A stretch of 64,000 bases of DNA from Eledone cirrhosa (Eukaryota). The position numbers were made by a program, and so were the translations under genes. Shown here piece after piece: positions 1,545 through 63,778 of the stretch. The stretch is taken from assembly GCA_964016885.1 (NCBI GenBank), contig OZ024744.1, positions 43,214,001-43,278,000 of the forward strand. The letters are read 5' to 3'. Each line of letters begins with the position of its first letter. Within the stretch, counting starts at the first letter, position 1. A model generated the notes under the pieces. It was not told the DNA's origin, searched no databases, and was given only the letters and a program-made list of their open reading frames with translations.

Positions 1545-4518
1545 CTGACATGATAAGATTAAAAGAAAAATACTAATTGTCATTTTACCTACAATATCCC
1601 ATATGTGTGTATATGACAGGTAGAAAGTGTTTCTATATGCATAAACATCTCTCTTTCTCTCTCTCTCTCTCTTTCTCTCTTCATATGCATATAAATATGT
1701 ACACACACAACACACACAAATATATATATATATATGTGTATAAGTGTGTGTGGGTGTGCACACTCACACCAACCACCATTACTTATTACATGATGTTCAA
1801 ATTATAACTTACTTTTTTTTGTAGGTTCAGGCTTCATTGAAGCAATGCGAGGAGACAATGCAATATGGTCAGCTAGAATATATAAACAAAATCATAGTAA
1901 ACCTACATGTATATTTACAAATAACATTACAAATACAAGAAACAGTTATTAGATTCATCATCTCTGATATATACATATATTCCACAACATCCAGTCCTAA
2001 ATAAATAAGGTCGTGTAGGTGTCACGACAAAAAAACACAAAGGCCACGCTGTAATGTGGCTGTGTAGGCAAAACTGTAAAAACCTCCCAGTCCACACTGT
2101 AAACGTGGTTGGTGTTAGGAAGGGCATCCAGCCATAGAAAACCTGCCAGATAGTCCCATACGAGCAAGACAACCAATCTTGTTTCAAGTGGGACAATTCC
2201 CGTCTAAACCCATGCTAGTGTTGAAGATAGACGTTAAACGATGATGATGATACACAAGGTCCAAACACAAATGGACCAAACTCCCGCTGTCTCAACCATT
2301 TATATATATATATATATATATATATAAATGGGAGGTATTCAAGATTGCGAGGCAGTGTGTCAGAGATAGTTGTGATGTCATTGGAGAGAAGTGTATCCGG
2401 AATGATAAAGGTGAGCTTGCCCTCACAAGTGCTGAGAAGAAAGATGCATGGAAGAGTCATTATGATAGATTACTATATGAGGAGAATGCATGGGAAGAAG
2501 AGACCCTACCCCACGTAGACCCTATAGAGGGACCAGCAGTACAAGTCAGCGGCAGCGTAGTAAGTAAGGCAATCAGAGATATGAAGATAGGGAAGGCAAC
2601 CGGTCCATCGGGTATAGCTGCCGAGATGCTGAAGGCATCTGGGTCTGTAGGTCACACTATAACCACACGTATCGTTAACCAGGTAATACTAGAGGGGGCC
2701 ATACCAAAAGATTGGTGCAGTAGCATCATTGTCAACTGCTACAAAGGTAAAGGCGATGCACTAGATAGAGGAAACTATAGAGGTATAAAGTTGATGGACC
2801 AGGTCATGAAAGTAACAGAAAGAGTTATAGCACAGCTGATTAGGGACCGGGTGAATATAGACGAGATGCAATTTGGGTTTGTACCAGGGAAAGGCACCAC
2901 TGATGCGCTCTTCCTTGTGAGGCAATTACAGGAAAAGTACCTAGCTAAAAGTAAGCCACTCTACTTGGCATTTGTCGACCTTGAGAAAGCCTTTGACAGA
3001 GTTCCACGTGCAGTAATCTGGTGGGCTCTTAGAAAACTAGGAGTAGATGAATGGCTTGTGAAAGCGGTACAAGCCATGTATAGGGGAGCAGTCAGCAAAG
3101 TTAGGATTGGCAATGAGTATAGCGAGGAATTTAGCGTACAGGTTGGGGTCCACCAGGGCTCTGTTCTTAGCCCTCTCCTGTTCATCATAGTCCTGCAGGC
3201 AATAACGGAGGAGTTTAAGACCGGATGCCCATGGGAACTCCTGTATGCTGATGACCTCGCACTCATAGCTGAATCTATGGTAGAACTAGAGAATAAATTC
3301 CAAACCTGGAAGCAGGGACTAGAGAGAAAGGGCCTCAAAGTCAACATGACAAAGACTAAGGTCCTTATAAGTAGACGAGAAAACAGAACCCAGATCCCCT
3401 CAGGGAAATGGCCTTGCTCAGTATGTAGGAAAGGTGTAGGTAGGAACTCCATTCTTTGCCCCAAATGCAAACAATGGGTACACAAGAGATGTAGCGGGAT
3501 CTCAGGAAGCTTAATTAAGAATGTAGGATTCACATGCAGCAGCTGTGCTGAAACAGCAAGCAAACAGCCATAGGAAACAAGTACCACCAATCTCTGGGAG
3601 GGCCCTGTAGAAACAGTAGACAGCTTCTGCTACCTAGGTGACCGAATTAGCAACGGAGGTGGGTGCTCAGAAAGTACAATAACTAGGGTAAGAACGGGAT
3701 GGAAGAAGTTTAGGGAACTACTACCACTGCTAGCTGCAAAAGGCTTCTCCCTCAGAATGAAAGGCAGACTGTATGATGCGTGTATCCGAACAGCGATGTT
3801 GCATGGTAGTGAGACCTGGGCGCTGAAGGTGGAAGACTTACGTAGATTAGAGAGAAACGAAGCCTGCATGCTCCGATGGATGTGTAACAGTAATATACGT
3901 GAACGACAAAGCATAAATGAATTGAGAGAGAGACTGAGCATAAGAGGAATCAAATGCTGCGTGCAGGAGAGGCGGTTACGCTGGTATGGACATGTGATGC
4001 GTATGAAGGATGACAGCTGCATAAAAAGGTGCAGAGCACTAGAAGTTGATGGAAACCGCGGAGTGGGGAGACCCAAGATGACTTGGGATGAGGTGATAAA
4101 AGCCGACCTTACCCAACTACACCTCTCAAAGTCAATGACACACGACCGTGACCTCTGGCGTCACGCAGTAATACAGGGTACCCGACCTCCCATGGGTACA
4201 TGCTGAAGCATATAAACAATATGCCCCCCCCCCCCCCCCCCCCCACACACCGCAAGGTGGTCGTGGAGGTGCCACGGCAAAAAAGCACCCAGCCCACACT
4301 GTAAAGTGGACGTGTAGGCGCCACGAAAAAGCACCCAGCACTCACTGTAAATGAGGTTGGTGTTAGGAAGGGCATCCAGCTGTAGAAATCAAGCCAGATC
4401 AGTTCCTGTATGAGCAAGGCATGGTCAGCCGACCAGACACTGCCCACAACAGGACAACCCGTCTAACCCATGCTAGCGTGGAAGAACGGACGTAAAACGG
4501 TGATGATGATGATGATGA

Positions 4519-4554
<36 letters not shown>

Positions 4555-7500: not shown

Positions 7501-7805
7501 TTTTGGCCTCTGATAAAGCTAGTCGTGAAAGTCGGATTGCCTTCCGAACACGCCCTGGTCTTTCAACTGATGTCCGCCCAAAGCTGCGTGCTGCAGCTTC
7601 CTTAAACCACAGCTCGGCAGAACATGAAAACTTCAGCCTACGTGATGATGGGCAGATATGGAAATTTATTAAGGCTGGTGAAACATGGAAAAGAGATACC
7701 AGCTCGTCTGAAAACACTGTACCCACAACAATATCCCATATGCGTGTATATGACAGGTAGAAAGTGTTTGTATATGCAAAAACATCTCTCTCTCTTTCTC
7801 TGTCA

Positions 7806-7837
<32 letters not shown>

Positions 7838-10900: not shown

Positions 10901-13122
10901 TGTTGGTGCCACACCATCCAGGCCGAAACAAATGAGATCGTGTAGGTGTCACGACAAAAAAACACACAGTCCACGCTGTAATGTGGCCGTGTAGGCAACA
11001 CGGTAAAAACCTCCCAGACCCACACTGTAAATGTGGTTGGTGTTAGGAAGGGCATCCAACTGTAGAAAACCTGCCAGACAGTCCTATGCGAGCAAGACAA
11101 TCACTCTTGCCTCAAGTGGGAAAACCCCCGTCCAAACCCATTCAAGCGTGGAACACGGACGTTAAACGATGATGATGATGATGATGATGATAGTGAAAGG
11201 ACAAAATTATTGAATAACTTATTAGATGATATTCAAATTATAACTTACTCATTTTAGTTGATTTTGGCTCCATTACAGCACTGATAGGGGACACTGTAAT
11301 ATGGTCACCTAGAATATATAAACAAAGTCATAGTAAACCTACATGTATATATACAAATAACATTACAAATACAGGAAACAGTTATTAGATTCATTGTCTC
11401 TGATATATACATATATACACCAGGTCCAAACACAAATGGACTAAACTCCCGCTTCCCCTGCCATTTATATATATATATATATATACATATATATAATTAT
11501 ATATAGTGAAAGGATTCAGGAGGCCAACTAGTTAGCTCCGTAAATATAAATTTACCACTAAATTTTCTATAATCATGGCAACTGTTCTAATAAAGCAAAT
11601 TTATTCTTACATACACACACACAGAACCTCACACTCACACAAACACAAACAGAGCTGACACACACTCAAATAAGCATCACCGGACAAACGCACCCAAACA
11701 AGTACACAATGAATTTATATACAACCCAATATACCTATATGTATACATCAACATACACATAATACCAAGATGACTTCACTTATATATGTACACACTATTT
11801 TATTCATTAGTTCCACCATACACATTACATAAACTTCCATGTATACAAATATACAATATAACGTCAATTTGATATTAATGTTGAAACACGTGTAATAGTA
11901 TTCTGTACTAACTGGGTAGAAAATGTGTTTGAAATACAACTTACTTTCTTTTGATCCACCTTTGATAAGTGTGTCTGTTTGAGAGACAAAGATCGCTGCA
12001 AGAGTCATACCTGGAAAAAATTATACGGAAGAAAATAATAATGGTTTCTACTTTTGGAACACGGCCAGCAAATACTCAGTACATTACTGGTACTTTATTT
12101 TAATTGACCCCGTAAGGATGAAAGGCAAAGTTGACCTCGGCGGGATTTGAACTCAGATGGCAAGGACCGTAACTCTATGCCTCAATGCATAACGTCCGAC
12201 CCTCTACCGATACTGCCAATTCACCAATAAAAGCTAGAGGGCATCCATTGACAAGAGTTTGTTGTCAAGTTGAAGAAAGGGTAGAATAAGTTTTCTTTTA
12301 TTTAATCCACTAGATCCATTTATACGGGTTGTTTTGTCAATGACATGCTTACTTATCCCACAAATCTAAAACTTCCAAAAGGAGTAAAGTGTGGTTAGTC
12401 ATATGTGGGATGTCTAGAATTATGAGAGAAATATTCTAGTTTCCCACTGGTTCTGAAGAACAGATATATATACAGGCATAACCAAATATTTAGGGTAGTG
12501 GATGATGTAGTGGATAAGAGTGTGCAGTGTATGAACAATGAAGTGAGACAAGAAATGGTGAAGAACTGTAGGATGAAGTTTTGATAAAGAAGAGAATACT
12601 GATCTCTGAAATAATTCAAACTACCTCAATGAATCTAGTGCAACATTTATCTTCTCATTTGAACCACATATAATGTCATTCTTTCTCAGCTATCTCTGAC
12701 AATGCCCTAAAAAGTCTAGCTATACTTTTGTCATCATTACAAGGTCTTTGAGAAAGTCAATAAAATGTTTATTCTGGATTATGTTATGGAGTTTGTAATA
12801 TAGAGTTTGATATTGTTGACTGAATTAAGTAGTTATAAATTTACTATTGAAAACCTAAATAAGTTACTGAATAACTTATTACATGATGTTTAAATTATAA
12901 CTTACTCTTTTCAGTAGCTTCAGGCTTCATTGCAGCACTGGGAGGGGACACTGTAATATGGTCACCTAGAATATATAAACAACATCATAGTAAACCTACA
13001 TGTATATATACAAATAACATTACAAATGCAGGAAACAGTTATAAGATTCATTATCTCTGATATATACATATATACACCAGGTGCAAAGACATATGGACCA
13101 ACCTCCCTCTGTCCCTGGCATA

Positions 13123-13169
<47 letters not shown>

Positions 13170-16100
13170 TCATCATCACATATATATATATATAGCGGCG
13201 ATGAATTAGTTTTGCAAGGTTTTTTATATGAAATCGTGTGTCGAAACAAATATTGTTATACTTGGGGAGGGTCATATTTGTGTAATATTGCCAGAATTAA
13301 TAACAGAACATACTCACTGTTTACTTGGTTTTCTTTTCGCTTCTCGCTGTCTTTTATATCGGTAATCTAACTTACTCGGTCCTCAATGTTGCCATTGACT
13401 GACCGACGGTCAAAAATAATACAGATACAATATAGACACAAACACATATATATAGTTTATCATAAATCTTTCGTTGCACATCTGCAACATCGTCAGTGGT
13501 GTTATATTTTCCTCCGCAAAGACCACAAGACAGTCGACGATCCGACAACAGGACCACTAACAAGACCCGTATTCGGAGCTAATATAGCTAGCAACTACGC
13601 CCCATAATCAAGATGTCCCCAGATGTATGTGACAGTACAGAGGACCTCCTCAGCACAATCAGTGAGTGCAACAAAAACAAGAGCCTATCCAACTGCATAA
13701 TAGGCAGCATGGATGTGGTGTCACTGTACCCATCCATTAACATTGATTTTGCTGTGAAAACATGTGTGGAGATGATCATTGAGAGTGAGGTGGAGTTCTG
13801 CGACGTCGACACAGACGAACTGGGCCTTCTACTTAGACTTACCTACAACACTGACTACCTAGACAGCCATGACCTTAGATGTTTCTGCCCTAGTAGAGCT
13901 ATAAGAGGTAGACCCCCCACCATAATCTCAATGGCAAAAAAGACTCCCATGGGAAGGTGGATTGGGTGAACCAAAGCTATACGGTCCCCCCAAAACAATG
14001 ATCAGGTAAGAAAAATGGTCGCACATGCAAAAGGGGCTAGTATCAAAACTACCCTAAAGGGCCACATATTTAAGTTCAACGAGAAAATCTACACCCAAAA
14101 TGAGGGAGCAGCCATCGGCGTCAGCATAGCTGGTGATGTTGCCAACCTTTTCATGGTATGGTGGGAAAGGAGACTTAAAGATCTCCTTAATGAAAGCTCC
14201 ATAGACCTCATCATGTACTCTCGTTATGTAGACGATATCAATATAGTTATAAGAACACCCCTACTAGAGAGCACTAACAAGTTTGATTTAGAATGTAGCA
14301 CGATGGAAAGCATCCAGCAGATAGCTAATTCCATACACCAGAGTATAACTGTAACTATCGACTTCCCTTCCAAACACCCTAACAATAGACTACCTGTATG
14401 AGACACAGAACTCTGGATTAACACTATAGACGAGAGAGAGCCCAAATTCTCCACTCACACTATGCTAAACCCATGGCCTCCAAATACTTGATACTCAAAA
14501 ACTCAGCAATGTCCAGTAGTGCTAAGTTTAATATTCTGATCGCAGATTTGGTACGAGTGATGAAGAATGTGTCCCGCATGTGCGACCCAACAGAAATGGA
14601 AAGACACATCCAACACTTCATCAACCGCATGCAGTTCTCTGGCTACAACCAAAGAGACAGAGTCAGAGTATACGAAGGAGCCATGGAAAAGTATAAGACC
14701 CTCATAGAACTGGACATGAAAGGAATTTGCCCATTATACAGGAGCAAATCATTGAATAGCTTAGATAGGGCTAGACATAAGATAGGGAAAGCCACCTCAT
14801 GGTACGACAACCAGAGAAACCAGAGTGTCATGTTTGTGGACGCCACCCCTGGAGGGAAATTAGCTAACCAGTGTAGAAAGGCCCTGAGAAATACCCACTT
14901 AAAAATAAAGGTGGCAGAAAAGCCAGGAACCACCATAGAATCCCTGATCAGCAAAACCTACCCTTTAAGAAAACAACACAACAGGAGGAAAAAATATAAC
15001 ACCACTGACGATGCTGCAGATGTGCAACGAAAGATTTATGTAAATTATGTAAACTATATATATGTGTTTGTGTCTATATTGTATCTGTATTATTTTTGAC
15101 CGTCGGTCAGTCAATGGCAACATTGAGGACCGATTAAGTTAGATTACCGATACAAAAAGACAGCGAGAAGCGAAAACCAACCAAACAGTGAGTGTGTTCT
15201 GTTATTAATTCTGGCAATATTACACAAATATGACCCTCCCCAAGTATAACAATATTTGTTTCAACACACGATTTCATATAAAAAACCTCGCTAAACTAAT
15301 TCATCGCCGCTATATATATATATATATATATATATAATCATCACCGTTTTACGTCCGTTCTTCCACGCTAGCATGGGTTAGACGGGTTGTCCTGTTGTGG
15401 GCAGTGTCTGGTCGGCTGACCATGCCTTGATCATACAGGAACTGATTCGGCTTGATTTCTACAGCTGGATACCCATCCTAACACCAACCTCATTTACAGT
15501 GAGTGCTGGGTGCTTTTTCGTGGCGCCTACACGTCCACTTTACAGTGTCGGCTGGGTGCTTTTTAGCCGTGGTGGGTGTGGGGGCATATTGTCTATATGC
15601 TTCAGCTTGTACCCATGGGAGGTCGGGTATTCTGTATTACTGCGCGACGCCAGAGGTCACGGTCGTGTGTCATCGCCTTTGAGAGGTGTAATTGGGTAAG
15701 ATCGGCTTTTATCACCTCATCCCAGGTCATCTTGGGTCTCCCCACTCCGCGGTTTCCATCGACTTCTAGTGCTCTGCACCTTTTTATGCAGCTGTCATCC
15801 TTCATACGCATCACATGTCCATACCAACGCAACCGCCTCTCCTGCACACAGCATTTGACTCCTCTTATGCTCAGTCTCTTTCTCAATTCGTTTATGCTTT
15901 GTCGTTCGCGTATATTACTATTACACATCCATCGGAGCATGCGGGCTTCGTTTCTCTCTAAGCTACATAAGTCTTCTACCTTCAGCGCCCAGGTCTCACT
16001 ACCATGCAACATCGCTGTTCAGATACACGCATCATACAGTCTGCCTTTCATTTTGAGGGAGAAGCCTTTTGCAGCTAGCAGTGGTAGTAGTTCCCTAAAC

Positions 16101-18707: not shown

Positions 18708-18745
<38 letters not shown>

Positions 18746-20495: not shown

Positions 20496-20552
<57 letters not shown>

Positions 20553-23001: not shown

Positions 23002-23054
<53 letters not shown>

Positions 23055-25507: not shown

Positions 25508-25541
<34 letters not shown>

Positions 25542-27296: not shown

Positions 27297-27330
<34 letters not shown>

Positions 27331-29070: not shown

Positions 29071-29129
<59 letters not shown>

Positions 29130-30867: not shown

Positions 30868-30920
<53 letters not shown>

Positions 30921-33373: not shown

Positions 33374-33407
<34 letters not shown>

Positions 33408-35162: not shown

Positions 35163-35196
<34 letters not shown>

Positions 35197-36936: not shown

Positions 36937-36999
<63 letters not shown>

Positions 37000-38723: not shown

Positions 38724-38788
<65 letters not shown>

Positions 38789-41700: not shown

Positions 41701-42292
41701 TATGAACAATGAAGGGTGACAAGAAATTGTGAAGAACTGTAGGATAAAATCTTGATAAAGAAGAGAATACTGATCTCTGAAATAATTCAAACTACCTCAA
41801 TGAATCTTGTGCAACATTTATCTTCTCATTTGAATCACATGTAATGTCATTCATTCTCAGCTATCTCTGATAATGCCCTAAAATAGTCTAGTTATAATTT
41901 TGTCATCATTAAAAGGTCTTTGAGGAAGTCAATAAAATGTTTATTCTGGATTATTTTATGGAGGTTGTAATAGAGAGTTTGATATTGTTGACTGAATTAA
42001 GTAGTTATGAATTTACTGTTGAAAACCTAAATAAGTTACTGAATAACTTATTACATGATGTTTAAATTATAACTTACTCTTTTGAGTAGTTTCAGACTTC
42101 ATTGCAGCACTGGGAGGGTACACGGTAATATGGTCACCTAGAATATATAAACAACATCATAGTAAACCTACATGTATATATATAAAAAACATTACAAATA
42201 CATGGAATCAGTTATTAGATTGATTATCTCTGATATATAGATATATACACCAGGTGCAAAGACATATGGACCAAACTCCCACTGTCCCTCGC

Positions 42293-42326
<34 letters not shown>

Positions 42327-44066: not shown

Positions 44067-44129
<63 letters not shown>

Positions 44130-45853: not shown

Positions 45854-45916
<63 letters not shown>

Positions 45917-47640: not shown

Positions 47641-47703
<63 letters not shown>

Positions 47704-49427: not shown

Positions 49428-49490
<63 letters not shown>

Positions 49491-51214
49491 GAGAGAATGG
49501 ATAAATTACTGAATAACTTATTAGATGATGTTCAAACTATAACTTACCCTTTTTAGTTGATTTTGCCTCCATTGAAGCAATGCGAGGGGACTGTGTAATA
49601 TGGTCACCTAGAATATATAAACAAAATCATAGTAAACCTACATGTATATATACAAATAACATTACAAATACAGGAAACAGTTATTAGATTTATTATCTCT
49701 GATATATACATATATACACCAGGTCCAAACATATATGGACCAAACTCCTACTGCCACTGCCATTTATATATATATATTTATATATAGTGAAAGGATTCAG
49801 GACGCCAACTACTTAGATCCGTAAATATACATTTACTACTAAATTTTCTATAATCATGGCAACAGTCCTAATAAAGCAAATTTATTCTTACATACACACA
49901 CACAGAGATTGCACACTCACAAACTCACACTCACACAAACACAAACAGGGCTCACACACACTCAAAAAAGCATCACCGGTGAAACACACCCAAACAGGTA
50001 CACAATGAATTAATATACAACCCAATATACCTATATGTATACATCAACATACACATAATACCAACATCACTTCACTTATATATGTACACACAATTTTATT
50101 CAATGGGTCCACCTAACACATTACATAAACTTAGAATGTATACAGATATACAATATAACGTCAATTTGATATTAATGTTGAAACACGTGTAATAGTTTTC
50201 TGTACTAACTGGTAGGAATCGGTTTGAAATACAACTTACTTTCTTTTGATCCACCTCTTATGTGTGTGCCTGAGTCAGAGACAAGGATCTCTACAGGAGT
50301 CACACCTGGAAAAATATACAGAAGAAAAGAATAATAAAAGCTAGAAGGCTTTCTTGAGAAGAGTTTGTTGTCAAGTTGAAGAAAGGGTAGAATGAGTTGT
50401 CATTTGTTTAATCAACTAGATCAAATTATACGGTTTGTTCTCTCAAGGACATGCTTACTTTTCCCACAAATCTAAAACTTACAAAAGGAGTAAAGTGTGG
50501 TTAGTCTTGAATTATGAGAGAAACATTCTACAGTTTCCTACTGGTCCTTAAAATCAGATTTATATAGTGGTTTACCAAATATTTAGGGTACTGGCAGATG
50601 TAGTGGAGAAGAGGATGCAGCATATGAACAATGAAGGGTGACAAGAAATTGTGAAGAACTGTAGGATAAAATCTTGATAAAGAAGAGAATACTGATCTCT
50701 GAAATAATTCAATCTAACTCAATGAATCTAGTGTAACATTTATCTTCTCATTTGAATCACATGTAATGTCATTCTTTCTCAGTTATCTCTGATAATGCCC
50801 TAAAAAAGTCTAGCTATACTTTTGTCATCATTAAAAGGTCTTTGAGGAAGTCAATAAAATGTTTATTCTGGATTATTTTATGGAGGTTGTAATAGAGAGT
50901 TTGATATTGTTGACTGAATTAAGTAGTTATAAATTTACTGTTGAAAACCTAAATAAGTTACTGAATAACTTATTACATGATGTTTAAATTATAACTTACG
51001 CTTTTGAGAAGTTTCAGGCTTCATTGCAGCACTGGAAGGGTACACGGTAATATGGTCACCTAGAATATATAAATAACATCATAGTAAACCTACATGTATA
51101 TATATAAAAAACATTACAAATACATGGAATCAGTTATTAGATTGATTATCTCTGATATATAGATATATACACCAGGTGCAAAGACATATGGACCAAACTC
51201 CCACTGTCCCTCGC

Positions 51215-51277
<63 letters not shown>

Positions 51278-53014
51278 GAGAGAATGGATAAATTACTGAA
51301 TAACTTATTAGATGATGTTCAAACTATAACTTACCCTTTTTAGTTGATTTTGCCTCCATTGAAGCAATGCGAGGGGACTGTGTAATATGGTCACCTAGAA
51401 TATATAAACAAAATCATAGTAAACCTACATGTATATATACAAATAACATTACAAATACAGGAAACAGTTATTAGATTTATTATCTCTGATATATACATAT
51501 ATACACCAGGTCCAAACATATATGGACCAAACTCCTACTGCCACTGCCATTTATATATATATATTTATATATAGTGAAAGGATTCAGGACGCCAACTACT
51601 TAGATCCGTAAATATACATTTACTACTAAATTTTCTATAATCATGGCAACAGTCCTAATAAAGCAAATTTATTCTTACATACACACACACAGAGATTGCA
51701 CACTCACAAACTCACACTCACACAAACACAAACAGGGCTCACACACACTCAAAAAAGCATCACCGGTGAAACACACCCAAACAGGTACACAATGAATTAA
51801 TATACAACCCAATATACCTATATGTATACATCAACATACACATAATACCAACATCACTTCACTTATATATGTACACACAATTTTATTCAATGGGTCCACC
51901 TAACACATTACATAAACTTAGAATGTATACAGATATACAATATAACGTCAATTTGATATTAATGTTGAAACACGTGTAATAGTTTTCTGTACTAACTGGT
52001 AGGAATCGGTTTGAAATACAACTTACTTTCTTTTGATCCACCTCTTATGTGTGTGCCTGAGTCAGAGACAAGGATCTCTACAGGAGTCACACCTGGAAAA
52101 ATATACAGAAGAAAAGAATAATAAAAGCTAGAAGGCTTTCTTGAGAAGAGTTTGTTGTCAAGTTGAAGAAAGGGTAGAATGAGTTGTCATTTGTTTAATC
52201 AACTAGATCAAATTATACGGTTTCTTCTCTCAAGGACATGCTTACTTTTCCCACAAATCTAAAACTTACAAAAGGAGTAAAGTGTGGTTAGTCTTGAATT
52301 ATGAGAGAAACATTCTACAGTTTCCTACTGGTCCTTAAAATCAGATTTATATAGTGGTTTACCAAATATTTAGGGTACTGGCAGATGTAGTGGAGAAGAG
52401 GATGCAGCATATGAACAATGAAGGGTGACAAGAAATTGTGAAGAACTGTAGGATAAAATCTTGATAAAGAAGAGAATACTGATCTCTGAAATAATTCAAT
52501 CTAACTCAATGAATCTAGTGTAACATTTATCTTCTCATTTGAATCACATGTAATGTCATTCTTTCTCAGTTATCTCTGATAATGCCCTAAAAAAGTCTAG
52601 CTATACTTTTGTCATCATTAAAAGGTCTTTGAGGAAGTCAATAAAATGTTTATTCTGGATTATTTTATGGAGGTTGTAATAGAGAGTTTGATATTGTTGA
52701 CTGAATTAAGTAGTTATAAATTTACTGTTGAAAACCTAAATAAGTTACTGAATAACTTATTACATGATGTTTAAATTATAACTTACGCTTTTGAGAAGTT
52801 TCAGGCTTCATTGCAGCACTGGGAGGGTACACGGTAATATGGTCACCTAGAATATATAAATAACATCATAGTAAACCTACATGTATATATATAAAAAACA
52901 TTACAAATACATGGAATCAGTTATTAGATTGATTATCTCTGATATATAGATATATACACCAGGTGCAAAGACATATGGACCAAACTCCCACTGTCCCTCG
53001 CATATATATATATA

Positions 53015-53056
<42 letters not shown>

Positions 53057-54780
53057 GAGAGAATGGATAAATTACTGAATAACTTATTAGATGATGTTCA
53101 AACTATAACTTACCCTTTTTAGTTGATTTTGCCTCCATTGAAGCAATGCGAGGGGACTGTGTAATATGGTCACCTAGAATATATAAACAAAATCATAGTA
53201 AACCTACATGTATATATACAAATAACATTACAAATACAGGAAACAGTTATTAGATTTATTATCTCTGATATATACATATATACACCAGGTCCAAACATAT
53301 ATGGACCAAACTCCTACTGCCACTGCCATTTATATATATATATTTATATATAGTGAAAGGATTCAGGACGCCAACTACTTAGATCCGTAAATATACATTT
53401 ACTACTAAATTTTCTATAATCATGGCAACAGTCCTAATAAAGCAAATTTATTCTTACATACACACACACAGAGATTGCACACTCACAAACTCACACTCAC
53501 ACAAACACAAACAGGGCTCACACACACTCAAAAAAGCATCACCGGTGAAACACACCCAAACAGGTACACAATGAATTAATATACAACCCAATATACCTAT
53601 ATGTATACATCAACATACACATAATACCAACATCACTTCACTTATATATGTACACACAATTTTATTCAATGGGTCCACCTAACACATTACATAAACTTAG
53701 AATGTATACAGATATACAATATAACGTCAATTTGATATTAATGTTGAAACACGTGTAATAGTTTTCTGTACTAACTGGTAGGAATCGGTTTGAAATACAA
53801 CTTACTTTCTTTTGATCCACCTCTTATGTGTGTGCCTGAGTCAGAGACAAGGATCTCTACAGGAGTCACACCTGGAAAAATATACAGAAGAAAAGAATAA
53901 TAAAAGCTAGAAGGCTTTCTTGAGAAGAGTTTGTTGTCAAGTTGAAGAAAGGGTAGAATGAGTTGTCATTTGTTTAATCAACTAGATCAAATTATACGGT
54001 TTCTTCTCTCAAGGACATGCTTACTTTTCCCACAAATCTAAAACTTACAAAAGGAGTAAAGTGTGGTTAGTCTTGAATTATGAGAGAAACATTCTACAGT
54101 TTCCTACTGGTCCTTAAAATCAGATTTATATAGTGGTTTACCAAATATTTAGGGTACTGGCAGATGTAGTGGAGAAGAGGATGCAGCATATGAACAATGA
54201 AGGGTGACAAGAAATTGTGAAGAACTGTAGGATAAAATCTTGATAAAGAAGAGAATACTGATCTCTGAAATAATTCAATCTAACTCAATGAATCTAGTGT
54301 AACATTTATCTTCTCATTTGAATCACATGTAATGTCATTCTTTCTCAGTTATCTCTGATAATGCCCTAAAAAAGTCTAGCTATACTTTTGTCATCATTAA
54401 AAGGTCTTTGAGGAAGTCAATAAAATGTTTATTCTGGATTATTTTATGGAGGTTGTAATAGAGAGTTTGATATTGTTGACTGAATTAAGTAGTTATAAAT
54501 TTACTGTTGAAAACCTAAATAAGTTACTGAATAACTTATTACATGATGTTTAAATTATAACTTACGCTTTTGAGAAGTTTCAGGCTTCATTGCAGCACTG
54601 GGAGGGTACACGGTAATATGGTCACCTAGAATATATAAATAACATCATAGTAAACCTACATGTATATATATAAAAAACATTACAAATACATGGAATCAGT
54701 TATTAGATTGATTATCTCTGATATATAGATATATACACCAGGTGCAAAGACATATGGACCAAACTCCCACTGTCCCTCGC

Positions 54781-54843
<63 letters not shown>

Positions 54844-56566
54844 GAGAGAATGGATAAATTACTGAATAACTTATTAGATGATGTTCAAACTATAACTTAC
54901 CCTTTTTAGTTGATTTTGCCTCCATTGAAGCAATGCGAGGGGACTGTGTAATATGGTCACCTAGAATATATAAACAAAATCATAGTAAACCTACATGTAT
55001 ATATACAAATAACATTACAAATACAGGAAACAGTTATTAGATTTATTATCTCTGATATATACATATATACACCAGGTCCAAACATATATGGACCAAACTC
55101 CTACTGCCACTGCCATTTATATATATATATTTATATATAGTGAAAGGATTCAGGACGCCAACTACTTAGATCCGTAAATATACATTTACTACTAAATTTT
55201 CTATAATCATGGCAACAGTCCTAATAAAGCAAATTTATTCTTACATACACACACACAGAGATTGCACACTCACAAACTCACACTCACACAAACACAAACA
55301 GGGCTCACACACACTCAAAAAAGCATCACCGGTGAAACACACCCAAACAGGTACACAATGAATTAATATACAACCCAATATACCTATATGTATACATCAA
55401 CATACACATAATACCAACATCACTTCACTTATATATGTACACACAATTTTATTCAATGGGTCCACCTAACACATTACATAAACTTAGAATGTATACAGAT
55501 ATACAATATAACGTCAATTTGATATTAATGTTGAAACACGTGTAATAGTTTTCTGTACTAACTGGTAGGAATCGGTTTGAAATACAACTTACTTTCTTTT
55601 GATCCACCTCTTATGTGTGTGCCTGAGTCAGAGACAAGGATCTCTACAGGAGTCACACCTGGAAAAATATACAGAAGAAAAGAATAATAAAAGCTAGAAG
55701 GCTTTCTTGAGAAGAGTTTGTTGTCAAGTTGAAGAAAGGGTAGAATGAGTTGTCATTTGTTTAATCAACTAGATCAAATTATACGGTTTGTTCTCTCAAG
55801 GACATGCTTACTTTTCCCACAAATCTAAAACTTACAAAAGGAGTAAAGTGTGGTTAGTCTTGAATTATGAGAGAAACATTCTACAGTTTCCTACTGGTCC
55901 TTAAAATCAGATTTATATAGTGGTTTACCAAATATTTAGGGTACTGGCAGATGTAGTGGAGAAGAGGATGCAGCATATGAACAATGAAGGGTGACAAGAA
56001 ATTGTGAAGAACTGTAGGATAAAATTTGATAAAGAAGAGAATACTGATCTCTGAAATAATTCAATCTAACTCAATGAATCTAGTGTAACATTTATCTTCT
56101 CATTTGAATCACATGTAATGTCATTCTTTCTCAGTTATCTCTGATAATGCCCTAAAAAAGTCAAGCTATACTTTTGTCATCATTAAAAGGTCTTTGAGGA
56201 AGTCAATAAAATGTTTATTCTGGATTATTTTATGGAGGTTGTAATAGAGAGTTTGATATTGTTGACTGAATTAAGTAGTTATAAATTTACTGTTGAAAAC
56301 CTAAATAAGTTACTGAATAACTTATTACATGATGTTTAAATTATAACTTACGCTTTTGAGAAGTTTCAGGCTTCATTGCAGCACTGGGAGGGTACACGGT
56401 AATATGGTCACCTAGAATATATAAACAACATCATAGTAAACCTACATGTATATATATAAAAAACATTACAAATACATGGAATCAGTTATTAGATTGATTA
56501 TCTCTGATATATAGATATATACACCAGGTGCAAAGACATATGGACCAAACTCCCACTGTCCCTCGC

Positions 56567-56629
<63 letters not shown>

Positions 56630-58338
56630 GAGAGAATGGATAAATTACTGAATAACTTATTAGATGATGTTCAAACTATAACTTACCCTTTTTAGTTGAT
56701 TTTGCCTCCATTGAAGCAATGCGAGGGGACTGTGTAATATGGTCACCTAGAATATATAAACAAAATCATAGTAAACCTACATGTATATATACAAATAACA
56801 TTACAAATACAGGAAACAGTTATTAGATTTATTATCTCTGATATATACATATATACACCAGGTCCAAACATATATGGACCAAACTCCTACTGCCACTGCC
56901 ATTTATATATATATATTTATATATAGTGAAAGGATTCAGGACGCCAACTACTTAGATCCGTAAATATACATTTACTACTAAATTTTCTATAATCATGGCA
57001 ACAGTCCTAATAAAGCAAATTTATTCTTACATACACACACACAGAGATTGCACACTCACACAAACACAAACAGGGCTCACACACACTCAAAAAAGCATCA
57101 CCGGTGAAACACACCCAAACAGTTACACAATGAATTAATATACAACCCAATATACCTATATGTATACATCAACATACACATAATACCAACATCACTTCAC
57201 TTATATATGTACACACAATTTTATTCAATGGGTCCACCTAACACATTACATAAACTTAGAATGTATACAGATATACAATATAACGTCAATTTGATATTAA
57301 TGTTGAAACACGTGTAATAGTTTTCTGTACTAACTGGTAGGAATCGGTTTGAAATACAACTTACTTTCTTTTGATCCACCTCTTATGTGTGTGCCTGAGT
57401 CAGAGACAAGGATCTCTACAGGAGTCACACCTGGAAAAATATACAGAAGAAAAGAATAATAAAAGCTAGAAGGCTTTCTTGAGAAGAGTTTGTTGTCAAG
57501 TTGAAGAAAGGGTAGAATGAGTTGTCATTTGTTTAATCAACTAGATCAAATTATACGGTTTGTTCTCTCAAGGACATGCTTACTTTTCCCACAAATCTAA
57601 AACTTACAAAAGGAGTAAAGTGTGGTTAGTCTTGAATTATGAGAGAAACATTCTACAGTTTCCTACTGGTCCTTAAAATCAGATTTATATAGTGGTTTAC
57701 CAAATATTTAGGGTACTGGCAGATGTAGTGGAGAAGAGGATGCAGCATATGAACAATGAAGGGTGACAAGAAATTGTGAAGAACTGTAGGATAAAATTTG
57801 ATAAAGAAGAGAATACTGATCTCTGAAATAATTCAATCTAACTCAATGAATCTAGTGTAACATTTATCTTCTCATTTGAATCACATGTAATGTCATTCTT
57901 TCTCAGTTATCTCTGATAATGCCCTAAAAAAGTCTAGCTATACTTTTGTCATCATTAAAAGGTCTTTGAGGAAGTCAATAAAATGTTTATTCTGGATTAT
58001 TTTATGGAGGTTGTAATAGAGAGTTTGATATTGTTGACTGAATTAAGTAGTTATAAATTTACTGTTGAAAACCTAAATAAGTTACTGAATAACTTATTAC
58101 ATGATGTTTAAATTATAACTTACGCTTTTGAGAAGTTTCAGGCTTCATTGCAGCACTGGGAGGGTACACGGTAATATGGTCACCTAGAATATATAAATAA
58201 CATCATAGTAAACCTACATGTATATATATAAAAAACATTACAAATACATGGAATCAGTTATTAGATTGATTATCTCTGATATATAGATATATACACCAGG
58301 TGCAAAGACATATGGACCAAACTCCCACTGTCCCTCGC

Positions 58339-58401
<63 letters not shown>

Positions 58402-60110
58402 GAGAGAATGGATAAATTACTGAATAACTTATTAGATGATGTTCAAACTATAACTTACCCTTTTTAGTTGATTTTGCCTCCATTGAAGCAATGCGAGGGG
58501 ACTGTGTAATATGGTCACCTAGAATATATAAACAAAATCATAGTAAACCTACATGTATATATACAAATAACATTACAAATACAGGAAACAGTTATTAGAT
58601 TTATTATCTCTGATATATACATATATACACCAGGTCCAAACATATATGGACCAAACTCCTACTGCCACTGCCATTTATATATATATATTTATATATAGTG
58701 AAAGGATTCAGGACGCCAACTACTTAGATCCGTAAATATACATTTACTACTAAATTTTCTATAATCATGGCAACAGTCCTAATAAAGCAAATTTATTCTT
58801 ACATACACACACACAGAGATTGCACACTCACACAAACACAAACAGGGCTCACACACACTCAAAAAAGCATCACCGGTGAAACACACCCAAACAGTTACAC
58901 AATGAATTAATATACAACCCAATATACCTATATGTATACATCAACATACACATAATACCAACATCACTTCACTTATATATGTACACACAATTTTATTCAA
59001 TGGGTCCACCTAACACATTACATAAACTTAGAATGTATACAGATATACAATATAACGTCAATTTGATATTAATGTTGAAACACGTGTAATAGTTTTCTGT
59101 ACTAACTGGTAGGAATCGGTTTGAAATACAACTTACTTTCTTTTGATCCACCTCTTATGTGTGTGCCTGAGTCAGAGACAAGGATCTCTACAGGAGTCAC
59201 ACCTGGAAAAATATACAGAAGAAAAGAATAATAAAAGCTAGAAGGCTTTCTTGAGAAGAGTTTGTTGTCAAGTTGAAGAAAGGGTAGAATGAGTTGTCAT
59301 TTGTTTAATCAACTAGATCAAATTATACGGTTTGTTCTCTCAAGGACATGCTTACTTTTCCCACAAATCTAAAACTTACAAAAGGAGTAAAGTGTGGTTA
59401 GTCTTGAATTATGAGAGAAACATTCTACAGTTTCCTACTGGTCCTTAAAATCAGATTTATATAGTGGTTTACCAAATATTTAGGGTACTGGCAGATGTAG
59501 TGGAGAAGAGGATGCAGCATATGAACAATGAAGGGTGACAAGAAATTGTGAAGAACTGTAGGATAAAATTTGATAAAGAAGAGAATACTGATCTCTGAAA
59601 TAATTCAATCTAACTCAATGAATCTAGTGTAACATTTATCTTCTCATTTGAATCACATGTAATGTCATTCTTTCTCAGTTATCTCTGATAATGCCCTAAA
59701 AAAGTCTAGCTATACTTTTGTCATCATTAAAAGGTCTTTGAGGAAGTCAATAAAATGTTTATTCTGGATTATTTTATGGAGGTTGTAATAGAGAGTTTGA
59801 TATTGTTGACTGAATTAAGTAGTTATAAATTTACTGTTGAAAACCTAAATAAGTTACTGAATAACTTATTACATGATGTTTAAATTATAACTTACGCTTT
59901 TGAGAAGTTTCAGGCTTCATTGCAGCACTGGGAGGGTACACGGTAATATGGTCACCTAGAATATATAAACAACATCATAGTAAACCTACATGTATATATA
60001 TAAAAAACATTACAAATACATGGAATCAGTTATTAGATTGATTATCTCTGATATATAGATATATACACCAGGTGCAAAGACATATGGACCAAACTCCCAC
60101 TGTCCCTCGC

Positions 60111-60173
<63 letters not shown>

Positions 60174-63100
60174 GAGAGAATGGATAAATTACTGAATAAC
60201 TTATTAGATGATGTTCAAACTATAACTTACCCTTTTTAGTTGATTTTGCCTCCATTGAAGCAATGCGAGGGGACTGTGTAATATGGTCACCTAGAATATA
60301 TAAACAAAATCATAGTAAACCTACATGTATATATACAAATAACATTACAAATACAGGAAACAGTTATTAGATTTATTATCTCTGATATATACATATATAC
60401 ACCAGGTCCAAACATATATGGACCAAACTCCTACTGCCACTGCCATTTATATATATATATTTATATATAGTGAAAGGATTCAGGACGCCAACTACTTAGA
60501 TCCGTAAATATACATTTACTACTAAATTTTCTATAATCATGGCAACAGTCCTAATAAAGCAAATTTATTCTTACATACACACACACAGAGATTGCACACT
60601 CACAAACTCACACTCACACAAACACAAACAGGGCTCACACACACTCAAAAAAGCATCACCGGTGAAACACACCCAAACAGGTACACAATGAATTAATATA
60701 CAACCCAATATACCTATATGTATACATCAACATACACATAATACCAACATCACTTCACTTATATATGTACACACAATTTTATTCAATGGGTCCACCTAAC
60801 ACATTACATAAACTTAGAATGTATACAGATATACAATATAACGTCAATTTGATATTAATGTTGAAACACGTGTAATAGTTTTCTGTACTAACTGGTAGGA
60901 ATCGGTTTGAAATACAACTTACTTTCTTTTGATCCACCTCTTATGTGTGTGCCTGAGTCAGAGACAAGGATCTCTACAGGAGTCACACCTGGAAAAATAT
61001 ACAGAAGAAAAGAATAATAAAAGCTAGAAGGCTTTCTTGAGAAGAGTTTGTTGTCAAGTTGAAGAAAGGGTAGAATGAGTTGTCATTTGTTTAATCAACT
61101 AGATCAAATTATACGGTTTGTTCTCTCAAGGACATGCTTACTTTTCCCACAAATCTAAAACTTACAAAAGGAGTAAAGTGTGGTTAGTCTTGAATTATGA
61201 GAGAAACATTCTACAGTTTCCTACTGGTCCTTAAAATCAGATTTATATAGTGGTTTACCAAATATTTAGGGTACTGGCAGATGTAGTGGAGAAGAGGATG
61301 CAGCATATGAACAATGAAGGGTGACAAGAAATTGTGAAGAACTGTAGGATAAAATTTGATAAAGAAGAGAATACTGATCTCTGAAATAATTCAATCTAAC
61401 TCAATGAATCTAGTGTAACATTTATCTTCTCATTTGAATCACATGTAATGTCATTCTTTCTCAGTTATCTCTGATAATGCCCTAAAAAAGTCAAGCTATA
61501 CTTTTGTCATCATTAAAAGGTCTTTGAGGAAGTCAATAAAATGTTTATTCTGGATTATTTTATGGAGGTTGTAATAGAGAGTTTGATATTGTTGACTGAA
61601 TTAAGTAGTTATAAATTTACTGTTGAAAACCTAAATAAGTTACTGAATAACTTATTACATGATGTTTAAATTATAACTTACGCTTTTGAGAAGTTTCAGG
61701 CTTCATTGCAGCACTGGGAGGGTACACGGTAATATGGTCACCTAGAATATATAAACAACATCATAGTAAACCTACATGTATATATATAAAAAACATTACA
61801 AATACATGGAATCAGTTATTAGATTGATTATCTCTGATATATAGATATATACACCAGGTGCAAAGACATATGGACCAAACTCCCACTGTCCCTCGCATAT
61901 ATATATATTTATATATAGAGAGAATGGATAAATTACTGAATAACTTATTAGATGATGTTCAAACTATAACTTACCCTTTTTAGTTGATTTTGCCTCCATT
62001 GAAGCAATGCGAGGGGACTGTGTAATATGGTCACCTAGAATATATAAACAAAATCATAGTAAACCTACATGTATATATACAAATAACATTACAAATACAG
62101 GAAACAGTTATTAGATTTATTATCTCTGATATATACATATATACACCAGGTCCAAACATATATGGACCAAACTCCTACTGCCACTGCCATTTATATATAT
62201 ATATTTATATATAGTGAAAGGATTCAGGACGCCAACTACTTAGATCCGTAAATATACATTTACTACTAAATTTTCTATAATCATGGCAACAGTCCTAATA
62301 AAGCAAATTTATTCTTACATACACACACACAGAGATTGCACACTCACAAACTCACACTCACACAAACACAAACAGGGCTCACACAAACTCAAAAAAGCAT
62401 CACCGGTGAAACACACCCAAACAGGTACACAATGAATTAATATACAACCCAATATACCTATATGTATACATCAACATACACATAATACCAACATCACTTC
62501 ACTTATATATGTACACACAATTTTATTCAATGGGTCCACCTAACACATTACATAAACTTAGAATGTATACAGATATACAATATAACGTCAATTTGATATT
62601 AATGTTGAAACACGTGTAATAGTTTTCTGTACTAACTGGTAGGAATCGGTTTGAAATACAACTTACTTTCTTTTGATCCACCTCTTATGTGTGTGCCTGA
62701 GTCAGAGACAAGGATCTCTACAGGAGTCACACCTGGAAAAATATACAGAAGAAAAGAATAATAAAAGCTAGAAGGCTTTCTTGAGAAGAGTTTGTTGTCA
62801 AGTTGAAGAAAGGGTAGAATGAGTTGTCATTTGTTTAATCAACTAGATCAAATTATACGGTTTGTTCTCTCAAGGACATGCTTACTTTTCCCACAAATCT
62901 AAAACTTACAAAAGGAGTAAAGTGTGGTTAGTCTTGAATTATGAGAGAAACATTCTACAGTTTCCTACTGGTCCTTAAAATCAGATTTATATAGTGGTTT
63001 ACCAAATATTTAGGGTACTGGCAGATGTAGTGGAGAAGAGGATGCAGCATATGAACAATGAAGGGTGACAAGAAATTGTGAAGAACTGTAGGATAAAATT

Positions 63101-63778
63101 TGATAAAGAAGAGAATACTGATCTCTGAAATAATTCAATCTAACTCAATGAATCTAGTGTAACATTTATCTTCTCATTTGAATCACATGTAATGTCATTC
63201 TTTCTCAGTTATCTCTGATAATGCCCTAAAAAAGTCTAGCTATACTTTTGTCATCATTAAAAGGTCTTTGAGGAAGTCAATAAAATGTTTATTCTGGATT
63301 ATTTTATGGAGGTTGTAATAGAGAGTTTGATATTGTTGACTGAATTAAGTAGTTATAAATTTACTGTTGAAAACCTAAATAAGTTACTGAATAACTTATT
63401 ACATGATGTTTAAATTATAACTTACGCTTTTGAGAAGTTTCAGGCTTCATTGCAGCACTGGGAGGGTACACGGTAATATGGTCACCTAGAATATATAAAC
63501 AACATCATAGTAAACCTACATGTATATATATAAAAAACATTACAAATACATGGAATCAGTTATTAGATTGATTATCTCTGATATATAGATATATACACCA
63601 GGTGCAAAGACATATGGACCAAACTCCCACTGTCCCTCGCATATATATATATTTATATATAGAGAGAATGGATAAATTACTGAATAACTTATTAGATGAT
63701 GTTCAAACTATAACTTACCCTTTTTAGTTGATTTTGCCTCCATTGAAGCAATGCGAGGGGACTGTGTAATATGGTCAC
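1501..63778 (-). CDS. Predicted giant multi-micro-exon gene (5' end outside the window) encoding a S/T/P/K-rich tandem-repeat protein; ~82 exons of 60 or 66 nt
   Basis: Each exon is bounded on the minus strand by a pyrimidine-rich acceptor (ttttgtttatatattctag or ttttcttctgtatattttttccag) and a GTAAGT donor. Lengths are exact multiples of 3, all phase 1-1, and manual splicing gives an open frame. A-type exon low coordinates: 18815, 21321, 23827, 25616, 27405, 29187, 31693, 33482, 35271, 37057, 38846, 40612, 42401, 44187, 45974, 47761, 49548, 51335, 53114, 54901, 56687, 58459, 60231, 61975, 63719. No transcript evidence is available. Confidence 0.8.
1813..1872 (-). CDS. Last repeat micro-exon: DHIALSPRIASMKPEPTKK
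   Basis: 60 nt, ctag/gtaagt boundaries, open frame. Confidence 0.72.
1983..2250 (+). mobile_element. RTE 3'-UTR fragment with (GAT)n tail
   Basis: ggttggtgttaggaagggcatccagc...gttaaacgatgatgat is shared with the RTE 3' ends at 5510-5783 and 10900-11190. Confidence 0.8.
2326..4522 (+). mobile_element. 5'-truncated RTE-clade LINE (RT, Cys-rich segment, 3' UTR, GAT tail); premature stop
   Basis: FVDLEKAFDRV, GVHQGSVLSPLLF and LLYADDL RT motifs; RLRWYGHVMR...GRPKMTW RTE C-terminus; (TA)n on both sides. Confidence 0.93.
4875..4934 (-). CDS. Diverged micro-exon A: DHITVSPRSASIKPKSTKK
   Basis: 60 nt, canonical splice sites; an RTE fragment begins ~13 nt from the acceptor. Confidence 0.7.
4947..5783 (+). 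mobile_element. Short RTE 3' fragment interrupted by a SINE
   Basis: RQSINELSEKLGIRGIRCC...YGH / MRMKDDS...GRPRKTW followed by the GAT tail. Confidence 0.85.
5040..5217 (-). mobile_element. tRNA-derived SINE nested in an RTE
   Basis: Minus-strand A-box-like TGGCAGTATCGG and B-box GAGTTCAAATCC, followed by the core ccgaggttgactttgcctttcatcc. Confidence 0.82.
5888..5947 (-). pseudogene. Micro-exon A copy with an in-frame stop: DHIAVSPRIASIEK*
   Basis: 60 nt with intact splice sites, but reads GAG AAA TAA where 18815-18874 reads GAG AAA ATA. Confidence 0.65.
6185..6244 (-). CDS. Diverged micro-exon A: DHITVAPRMASMEQKSTKK
   Basis: 60 nt, canonical splice sites, open frame. Confidence 0.75.
6487..6546 (-). 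CDS. Diverged micro-exon A: DHITVSPRSAPIKPKSTKK
   Basis: 60 nt, canonical splice sites, open frame. Confidence 0.75.
6600..6787 (-). mobile_element. tRNA-derived SINE with a 16-bp target-site duplication
   Basis: A and B boxes as above; TSD tatatatacaaataac at 6584-6599 and 6788-6803. Confidence 0.88.
7254..7727 (+). mobile_element. Probable LINE ORF1 remnant (CR1/L2-type)
   Basis: GC-richer insert reading KVIAIGVPED.../LGRRSPKPRLIRLSF, reminiscent of ORF1 IxGVPE...RLG...PRxIxxxF motifs; frameshifted. Confidence 0.5.
7966..8025 (-). CDS. Diverged micro-exon: DHIAVSPRIASLKTEPTKK
   Basis: 60 nt, ctag/gtaagt boundaries; duplicate of 1813-1872. Confidence 0.72.
8135..8407 (+). mobile_element. 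RTE 3'-UTR fragment (duplicate of 1983-2250)
   Basis: Same sequence at the same intronic position within a duplicated block. Confidence 0.8.
8467..8951 (-). mobile_element. RTE 3'-end fragment, inverted relative to 8973-11190
   Basis: Reverse complement of ~10710-11190; ORF-track entries 8557+ and 10888- give nearly the same peptide. Confidence 0.88.
8973..11190 (+). mobile_element. 5'-truncated RTE LINE, second subfamily
   Basis: RT motifs in 9068..10051 and 10061..10798, separated by one in-frame TGA; (GAT)n tail. Confidence 0.93.
11249..11308 (-). CDS. Diverged micro-exon A: DHITVSPISAVMEPKSTKM
   Basis: 60 nt, canonical splice sites, open frame. Confidence 0.8.
11945..12010 (-). CDS. 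Diverged micro-exon C: MTLAAIFVSQTDTLIKGGSKE
   Basis: 66 nt, ccag/gtaagt boundaries; same frame as the start of ORF-track entry 11748..12008. Confidence 0.8.
12042..12225 (-). mobile_element. tRNA-derived SINE
   Basis: A and B boxes plus core; array units show the empty site gaaaagaataataaaagctag. Confidence 0.85.
12906..12965 (-). CDS. Diverged micro-exon B: DHITVSPPSAAMKPEATEK
   Basis: 60 nt, canonical splice sites, same flanking intron as array exon B. Confidence 0.8.
13461..13500 (-). ncRNA. Hammerhead-like motif in the PLE terminal repeat (degenerate)
   Basis: CUGACGA U GUUGCA-GAUG-UGCAAC GAAA GAUU UA; good stem II, weak stem I. Confidence 0.5.
15001..15040 (+). ncRNA. Hammerhead-like motif in the PLE terminal repeat (degenerate)
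   Basis: ctgacga t gctgca-gatg-tgcaac gaaa gatt ta; one stem II mismatch. Confidence 0.42.
15337..18710 (-). mobile_element. Near full-length RTE LINE (APE endonuclease plus RT), pseudogenised
   Basis: LRVGTINVSTM...DVCCVQETRW APE motif, WWNNKVDEAV linker, RT motifs and GAT tail; same subfamily as 2326-4522; several stops and frameshifts. Confidence 0.93.
18815..18874 (-). CDS. Micro-exon A at the array edge: DHITVSPRIASIEKISTKK
   Basis: 60 nt, ctag/gtaagt boundaries, open in phase 1. Confidence 0.8.
19506..19571 (-). CDS. Representative micro-exon C (66 nt): (R)VTPVEILVSDSGTHIRGGSKE
   Basis: Minus strand: ttttccag|GTGTGACTCCTGTAGAGATCCTTGTCTCTGACTCAGGCACACACATAAGAGGTGGATCAAAAGAAA|gtaagt. 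Confidence 0.85.
20281..20340 (-). CDS. Representative micro-exon B (60 nt): (G)DHITVYPPSAAMKPETSQK
   Basis: Minus strand: ttctag|GTGACCATATTACCGTGTACCCTCCCAGTGCTGCAATGAAGCCTGAAACTTCTCAAAAGC|gtaagt; paralogous to exon A. Confidence 0.85.
20547..21246 (-). mobile_element. Non-autonomous retrozyme/PLE-like insertion: 1.5 copies of a 466-bp unit (234-bp direct repeats)
   Basis: 20547-20780 is repeated at 21013-21246 with one visible mismatch; inserted in a TA tract; hammerhead motif in the middle. Confidence 0.78.
20841..20885 (-). ncRNA. Minimal type I hammerhead ribozyme
   Basis: AAUAUUG CUGAUGA GAUGU-AACA-ACAUC GAAA CUAG UC^CAAUAUU: complete core, 7-bp stem I, 5-bp stem II, palindromic minimal stem III. 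Confidence 0.85.
21321..21380 (-). CDS. Representative micro-exon A (60 nt): (S)DHITQSPRIASMEPKSTKK
   Basis: Minus strand: ttctag|GTGACCATATTACACAGTCCCCTCGCATTGCTTCAATGGAGCCAAAATCAACTAAAAAGG|gtaagt. Confidence 0.85.
23053..23752 (-). mobile_element. Retrozyme-like insertion, copy 2
   Basis: Same sequence, offset +2506 from copy 1. Confidence 0.78.
23347..23391 (-). ncRNA. Minimal type I hammerhead ribozyme, copy 2
   Basis: Identical to 20841-20885. Confidence 0.85.
30919..31618 (-). mobile_element. Retrozyme-like insertion, copy 3
   Basis: Same sequence, offset +7866 from copy 2. Confidence 0.78.
31213..31257 (-). ncRNA. Minimal type I hammerhead ribozyme, copy 3
   Basis: Identical to 20841-20885. 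Confidence 0.85.

Follow-up and report, generated by a model that had tools for sequence, protein, structure and literature searches.

Genes with intragenic tandem exon arrays, in which copy number sets protein length, include LPA, DAZ, NBPF, and DMBT1 (PMC2588610, table 2B). In Schistosoma mansoni, SmPoMuc genes carry up to 20 genomic repeats of one 27-nucleotide (nt) exon along with 13 further exons, and their homogenized core and divergent edges have been ascribed to unequal crossing-over (PMC2576457). Micro-exon genes (MEGs) all encode a signal peptide (PMC4350168) and contain 10 to 20 exons, mostly of 15 nt and ranging from 6 to 81 nt (bioRxiv 10.1101/2023.06.21.545858). Exons 50 to 225 of titin are nearly all multiples of 3, and their skipping is driven by RBM20 (PMC3575840). 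NBPF1 is mainly cytoplasmic (PMC13028154, PMC9313022, PMC2588610, PMC9584774).

The locus described here, from Eledone cirrhosa, is an unusually large variant of this known architecture, its putative exons being judged as such from selection, and its phase symmetry is by itself ordinary. Its architecture is closest to those of SmPoMuc and NBPF. Shared with SmPoMuc are a lineage-specific multigene family with pseudogenes among its members, repeat numbers that differ between genes, and a tandem unit of exon plus intron under concerted evolution (~1 kb with microsatellites in SmPoMuc) (PMC2576457). Unlike SmPoMuc, a host-interface mucin whose transcript variation has been demonstrated, the present gene has no predicted signal peptide, is known from DNA alone, and draws nearly the whole protein from as many as 282 exons, which fall into two or three types (PMC2576457); SmPoMuc's conserved 13-exon C-terminal part is absent, the last exon adding 2 or 21 amino acids (aa). 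Primate NBPF/Olduvai genes are likewise a set of about 20 paralogs, including pseudogenes, spread by segmental duplication, with helices at the N terminus, repeats in variable number after them, and a three-type higher-order repeat (PMC13028154, PMC9313022, PMC2588610, PMC9584774). An Olduvai domain, however, is an exon doublet, and its triplet unit of ~4.7 kb holds six exons, as opposed to the single symmetric exons of ~20 aa here; neither the first exon nor the A exon (Table 1) had a significant Pfam match to the Olduvai (DUF1220) domain.

The titin PEVK region resembles the array in having about 100 short exons or more, with lengths almost always divisible by 3, in their gain and loss by tandem duplication, and in encoding a low-complexity chain (PMC3575840, PMC6469411). 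But titin is a conserved single-copy giant with Ig/Fn3 domains, whereas this gene is multicopy, has no folded domain that we could find, and skips exons only hypothetically. A sequence-only reading of this DNA had suggested that the system could be PEVK-like, which suits the architecture but neither the composition, in which P+E+V+K reach 27 to 34% in four loci with Ser and Thr leading (versus the 0.54 cutoff of PMC6469411), nor the surroundings, in which no Ig/Fn3 domains were found. The same reading had offered MEG-like as the other possibility. As in MEGs, the coding region consists mostly of short symmetric exons, within the 6- to 81-nt range though far above 15 nt, and gene expansion is species specific in transposon-rich surroundings (PMC4350168, bioRxiv 10.1101/2023.06.21.545858). 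The ratio of nonsynonymous to synonymous change (omega) of 1.11 to 1.20, here indistinguishable from 1, compares with 1.10 to 1.14 for MEG-1, -9, and -15 (PMC4350168). MEG products, however, reach 189 aa and have demonstrated isoforms, as opposed to the 500 to 5,800 aa predicted here from tandem 60- and 66-nt exons (PMC4350168, bioRxiv 10.1101/2023.06.21.545858), and membership among the MEGs fails at the N terminus, which is Arg/Lys rich and without a signal peptide.

The window, a 64,000-nt stretch (C28:43214001-43278000) of the 3.0-Gb genome, lies entirely inside the predicted gene, which runs on the minus strand. With elements from the window itself as seeds, a search recovered 82 exon-like elements (Table 1), 57 of 60 nt and 25 of 66 nt, so that the earlier count of about 82 exons, all multiples of 3, stands. 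Their acceptors are TTCTAG (n = 57) or TTCCAG (n = 25), and all 82 donors are GTAAGT. Inside the window, phase 1 follows from the common A and C exons being closed in every other frame; the 220-nt ATG exon, which lies outside it and ends in phase 1, settles the phase independently. The phase-1 frame is open in 81 of the 82 elements, and the claim of a shared phase thus survives apart from one overlooked copy with an in-frame TAA. Junction codons, in genomic order, are Ser (33), Gly (28), Arg (19), and Ala (1); the sequence-only rule that A, G, or C plus GT gives Ser, Gly, or Arg accordingly describes 80 of 81 junctions, the last exon starting with CT rather than GT. That any subset of exons can be dropped in frame is correct within the window, but not for the gene as a whole, in which 3 copies among the 282 that keep both splice sites measure 58 or 61 nt.

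The 82 elements comprise 18 distinct sequences, and three peptides account for 62 of them. Adjacent units of ~1.78 kb are 98.3 to 100% identical, the exception (92.7%) lying at the edge. Sequence comparison shows the B exon to be homologous to the C exon, and comparison of A with B exons found no similarity. By these resemblances, all 82 elements appear to descend from two founder exons (A and B/C), making their phase symmetry an inheritance from two founders and not 82 independent facts.

The homogenized core contains no long open reading frames. Three core units carry an insertion of ~0.7 kb in the B-C intron, which there measures 980 nt; the insertion has an internal direct repeat (window positions ~20560-21270, ~23070-23780, and ~30930-31640) and was copied along with the units. 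Broken copies of non-LTR retrotransposons (RVT_1, one with a PHD match) lie in edge introns at window positions 2251-4206 (+), 8951-10798 (+), and 16655-17677 (-).

TABLE 1 Features of the predicted gene and of its exon array, given as contig (C28) or window positions
Feature	Position	Strand	Basis
First coding exon, 220 nt from ATG, ending in phase 1 at GTAAGT; 73 basic aa	C28:43417911-43418130	-	
Array exons 1-193	C28:43278411-43407829	-	
Frameshifted array copies: 61 nt (43377470), 58 nt (43365457 and 43361879)	C28	-	
Window's share of the array (exons 194-275 of 282), 82 exons predicted to be phase 1-1: 25 A-type (66 nt), 32 B-type (60 nt), 25 C-type (60 nt)	window 1813..63778	-	sequence
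Homogenized core of ~1.78-kb three-exon units, B-C-A in transcription order; neighbors 98.3-100% identical	window 18815..63778	-	
Example B exon, 60 nt, DHITQSPRIASMEAKSTKK	window 63719..63778	-	
Example C exon, 60 nt, homologous to B, DHITVYPPSAAMKPETSQK	window 63426..63485	-	
Example A exon, 66 nt, VTPVEILVSDSGTHIRGGSKE	window 62667..62732	-	
Divergent array edge: nine more diverged exons (C, A, seven B-type); introns mostly longer, with retrotransposon pieces	window 1813..12965	-	
B-type copy with in-frame TAA, splice sites intact, array exon 273	window 5888-5947	-	sequence
Array exons 276-282	C28:43207143-43211327	-	
Putative last exon: acceptor, two residues, stop, AATAAA 207 nt in	C28:43194172 downwards	-	

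Read from the window plus 200 kb of flanking sequence on each side, the predicted gene spans 223,958 nt (~224 kb), with the first exon 140 kb beyond the window and ten kb upstream of the array. The array holds 285 copies, a number that in near-identical units depends on the assembly; 282 have both splice sites, and 278 are clean, encoding 37 distinct peptides. These elements are probably exons, judging from sequence and selection. All-included, the frame ends at array exon 46 (1,019 aa) or at the 58-nt copies (1,226 aa), giving two or three frameshifted exons upstream of the window. Exon 46, of 61 nt, has gained 1 nt within a run of A, possibly through an assembly or homopolymer error, whereas the 2-nt loss shared by the 58-nt copies, which lie in two units 99.1% identical, is probably real. 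All of the window's 82 exons lie downstream of the frameshifted copies and would therefore be translated only if those copies were skipped.

Upstream of the gene's start, a noncoding block ~60 to 240 nt before the ATG (C28 ~43418190-43418370) is 96.7% identical (174 of 180) between the two subfamilies described below, as opposed to 86.4% for the first exon and about 78% for its synonymous sites, making the block a candidate promoter or 5′ untranslated element under strong constraint or conversion. At the other end, further 3′ exons may lie past a downstream satellite, and a candidate 42-nt exon of phase 0-0 occurs 11.8 kb beyond the last exon. The satellite, with a 20-bp period, lies 8 to 36 kb downstream of the last exon (+12907..35945 at this locus), is at least 3 to 23 kb long, and accompanies five of seven loci examined, from both subfamilies; it may belong to the duplicated block. 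Overlapping the AATAAA is an inverted repeat of ~175 nt (84%), with copies at +188..359 and +2589..2761 counted from the last acceptor; it is met again, at a spacing of 3 to 7 kb, behind most paralogs and may represent a pair of transposon ends or a hairpin in the 3′ RNA. To the eye, the B/C acceptors look like the acceptor region of the last exon, a hint that B/C arose by duplication of that intron end.

The predicted product is 5,813 aa long with the four broken copies omitted, and the 278 clean exons, of 54 to 66 nt, supply all but ~75 of these residues. Its composition (Ser 14.8%, Thr 10.1%, Lys 9.8%, Pro 8.4%, and almost no Phe, Trp, or Cys) suggests that the array-encoded tail, with 190 Ser/Thr-Pro sites, is disordered. 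The 73-aa head is Arg/Lys rich, with a highest 11-residue hydropathy of 0.6; a model from an 8-sequence alignment has helices at residues 3 to 25 and 29 to 43 followed by low-confidence coil (mean pLDDT, 74). On hydropathy and the in-frame stops 12 to 93 nt 5′ of the ATG, rather than a dedicated predictor, no signal peptide was found in the first exon at any of 10 loci, and the family product is predicted to be nonsecreted and intracellular. No folded domain was found in the first or last exon that bracket the array, no significant Pfam match was returned for the first exon or A exon, and the ESM Atlas likewise gave nothing usable. Searches with the first exon, its 8-sequence alignment, and the read-through around exon A (the 19-aa B/C alignment being too short as a query) found no protein relatives among proteins of about 113-133 to 2,000 aa, a weak negative; two matches from a full-profile search were judged on reading to be unrelated repeat proteins and were rejected. 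No description of this gene family was found in the literature covered, which excluded subscription journals and bioRxiv supplements.

Matches to the first exon number 17 in the genome (all 20 candidates scored), and those to the last exon number at least 18 long matches among the 40 of 54 candidates scored. Most first-exon matches have a last-exon match 51 to 224 kb downstream that fits them in position and strand, and on this evidence the gene belongs to a predicted family of about 17 paralogs without a database relative. Twelve loci were read end to end and two more over their first 40 kb, the rest being known from search tables. The 12 loci share the layout of a first exon ending in phase 1, an array, and a last exon, and the first exon ended in phase 1 with GTAAGT in all 10 loci checked. 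They form two subfamilies of the same layout, with first exons of 220 or 226 nt encoding proteins about 78% identical. Clean exons number 22 to 278 per locus in the 11 loci with an array, the remaining locus being a pseudogene with four detectable copies; altogether, both splice sites are present in 865 copies, of which 858 have lengths divisible by 3 and 854 are clean. Among the 12 last exons aligned, 10 contribute 2 aa and 2 (from loci L103 and L104 on C18) contribute a basic tail of 21 aa, opened by a Tyr codon in the place of the stop. In the most diverged paralog (G000:C28:28781270-28873514), the first exon is frameshifted and just four array copies can be detected within 92 kb, two of which lack splice sites; this paralog is possibly the relic of a short ancestral gene. 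Other partial copies are the decayed family exons at C28 ~43034600, where no first exon could be detected, and a last exon at C28:44234158 that lacks a first-exon partner.

Repeat units differ in make-up by locus, with B-only runs, A-A pairs, A-B, A-B-C, and longer units, indicating that single exons are gained and lost in DNA. Symmetry is kept because exons gained and lost singly survive only if symmetric. The sequence-only reading had taken symmetry to point to combinatorial skipping, but it is the survival condition expected of exons duplicated or lost one by one in DNA; combinatorial splicing is thus possible, being allowed by the symmetry and not predicted from it. The same reading's variable-length protein system holds insofar as predicted lengths differ widely between loci, length variation among gene copies being demonstrated at the DNA level, but it is DNA copy number that sets the length.

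The explanation that we favor, with fair though far from full confidence, is an orphan family of nonsecreted proteins that join a basic helical head to a disordered tail; unequal crossing-over would reset their length, and the exons would be included by default. Two founder exons would have happened to be phase 1-1, so that duplicating either of them, or losing one of its splice sites, left the frame intact. Selection would target frame, length, and composition rather than exact residues, splicing would include exons by default with occasional skips harmless, and tail length would likely be reset by unequal crossing-over and not by programmed skipping. Unequal crossing-over is favored because the core is homogenized and the edges are divergent, as in SmPoMuc (PMC2576457). 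More tentatively, the head might bind chromatin or the inner membrane face, with the tail serving as a length-tunable, phosphorylatable spacer or scaffold. Most likely, this locus is a recently truncated copy, encoding 1,019 to 1,226 aa and not ~5,800, unless the frameshifted exons are skipped.

Programmed or high-rate combinatorial skipping, which would give each gene a ladder of isoforms and maintain symmetry for that purpose, is an unlikely but arguable alternative. Every combination is in frame, with no stop at any junction seen, and the exons of this locus beyond the frameshifts stay clean but for one stop near the end. Similarly, C18:9.38, the other locus broken early in its array, has a stop at 147 aa yet 38 clean exons, and 12 family copies combine weak GT/GC donors with open frames. 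By calculation, skipping of 1% per exon already leaves only 6% of 282-exon transcripts complete, so that some spread of lengths is expected without any program. But symmetry follows from the duplication history, consensus splice sites are present in all 82 window exons, and the cleanliness of the exons beyond the frameshifts says little, since these copies are very young. Because three peptides make up most of the window's exons, skipping would mostly alter length and yield little sequence variety, the 278 clean exons of the locus holding only the 37 peptides. Skipping is unnecessary in 7 of the 12 loci, since there the all-included frame is intact, running as far as either the final array exon or the last exon (699 to 2,452 aa); of the remaining five loci, one loses its frame shortly before the end (495 aa), two carry a break in the first exon, and two are interrupted early in the array. 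Steric mutual exclusion was ruled out, introns in this locus being at least 231 nt, as was, on inspection, recursive splicing at AG|GT exon starts, since subfamily 2 exons start mostly with TT or CT. A search for retrocopies as fossils of splicing returned 29 and 30 matches with two exact patterns, which miss diverged copies and the second of which fits only subfamily 2 spacing; all matches listed were unrelated minisatellites.

A specific form of skipping, also rather improbable, would make the family an intracellular counterpart of the MEGs: ~17 orphan genes, bearing as many as 282 exons that can stand in for one another, would drop these blockwise or randomly and so produce a cell- or tissue-specific ladder of disordered proteins of a few hundred to ~5,800 aa, and skipping of frameshifted "poison" copies would decide whether this locus makes its long forms. 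The distribution of broken copies fits the favored default inclusion, since copies with dead sites have spread and poisoned ones rarely have: 79 copies lack a consensus splice-site pair, 40 of them sharing one dead donor, as opposed to 11 frame-broken copies that keep both sites. Counted as events, the classes are closer than by copies: 15 changes at splice sites as opposed to 4 stops and a few frameshifts.

A decaying or selfish macrosatellite, in which once-coding units expand neutrally within segmental duplications and make little or no protein, is quite improbable, chiefly on tests of selection, although all counts taken from trees of such short and recombining repeats are approximate. Parsimony trees built from 72 and 175 distinct copies gave 3 stop gains in phase 1 versus 15.7 expected (P = 1e-4), as opposed to 82 versus 112 (0.73) in the five other frames; correcting by hand for this control shortfall brings P to about 0.003. 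Within each exon class taken alone, one further frame showed depletion too, but phase 1 was the only frame depleted in both. With broken copies included, stops numbered 1 versus 13.0 expected in A and 3 versus 15.5 in B/C. Changes to AG/GT were fewer than expected in B/C copies (8 versus 21.5) and not significantly so in A copies (7 versus 10.8, P = 0.15). The first exon has a pN of 0.12 versus a pS of 0.20 to 0.24 between subfamilies, and the block before its ATG is conserved. Exon lengths and splice sites are maintained across subfamilies whose exons are 52 to 65% identical (43 of 66 nt for A and 31 of 60 for B in the one pair compared). Selection thus probably acts on frame and splice sites and not on residues. 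What the macrosatellite has in its favor is an array omega of about 1 (likelihood estimates of 1.20 and 1.11, with fixing at 1 costing 0.5 and 0.3 log-likelihood units), exons that change about as fast as introns or faster, the absence of relatives from the protein libraries searched, the neighboring 20-bp satellite, and constraint that is partial, with 4 of the 12 loci broken early and one near its end.

Diversifying selection on repeat sequence, by which paralogs are driven apart (e.g., in gamete or host-pathogen conflict) and sequence matters rather than length, is very improbable: A exons changed 1.46 times as fast as their flanks after base-class correction (185 changes versus 126.6 expected), parsimony omega exceeded 1 in all eight overlapping subsets (1.03 to 1.81), and exons are less alike than flanks between subfamilies, but B/C exons showed no excess (0.94 times the flank rate), likelihood omega does not differ from 1, conversion of or constraint on flanks would give the same picture, and the product is predicted to be intracellular. 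Base composition or CpG was rejected as the source of the fast exon change, the A excess persisting after correction. Two first-exon pseudogenes were excluded from the exon-versus-flank rates and likelihood fit, and one, known from its first 40 kb, was included in the parsimony omega, AG/GT, and stop counts. The fast change of A exons is not explained by the length-only selection of the favored reading.

If real, this would be a gene family hidden from ordinary annotation by its resemblance to a 1.8-kb satellite, with about 850 clean exons in 12 loci and about 280 in one gene. Its protein would be selected for frame and length and hardly for sequence. The family would also provide a clean test of spliceosome fidelity on hundreds of near-identical exons, on which skipping at 1% would leave 6% of transcripts complete.
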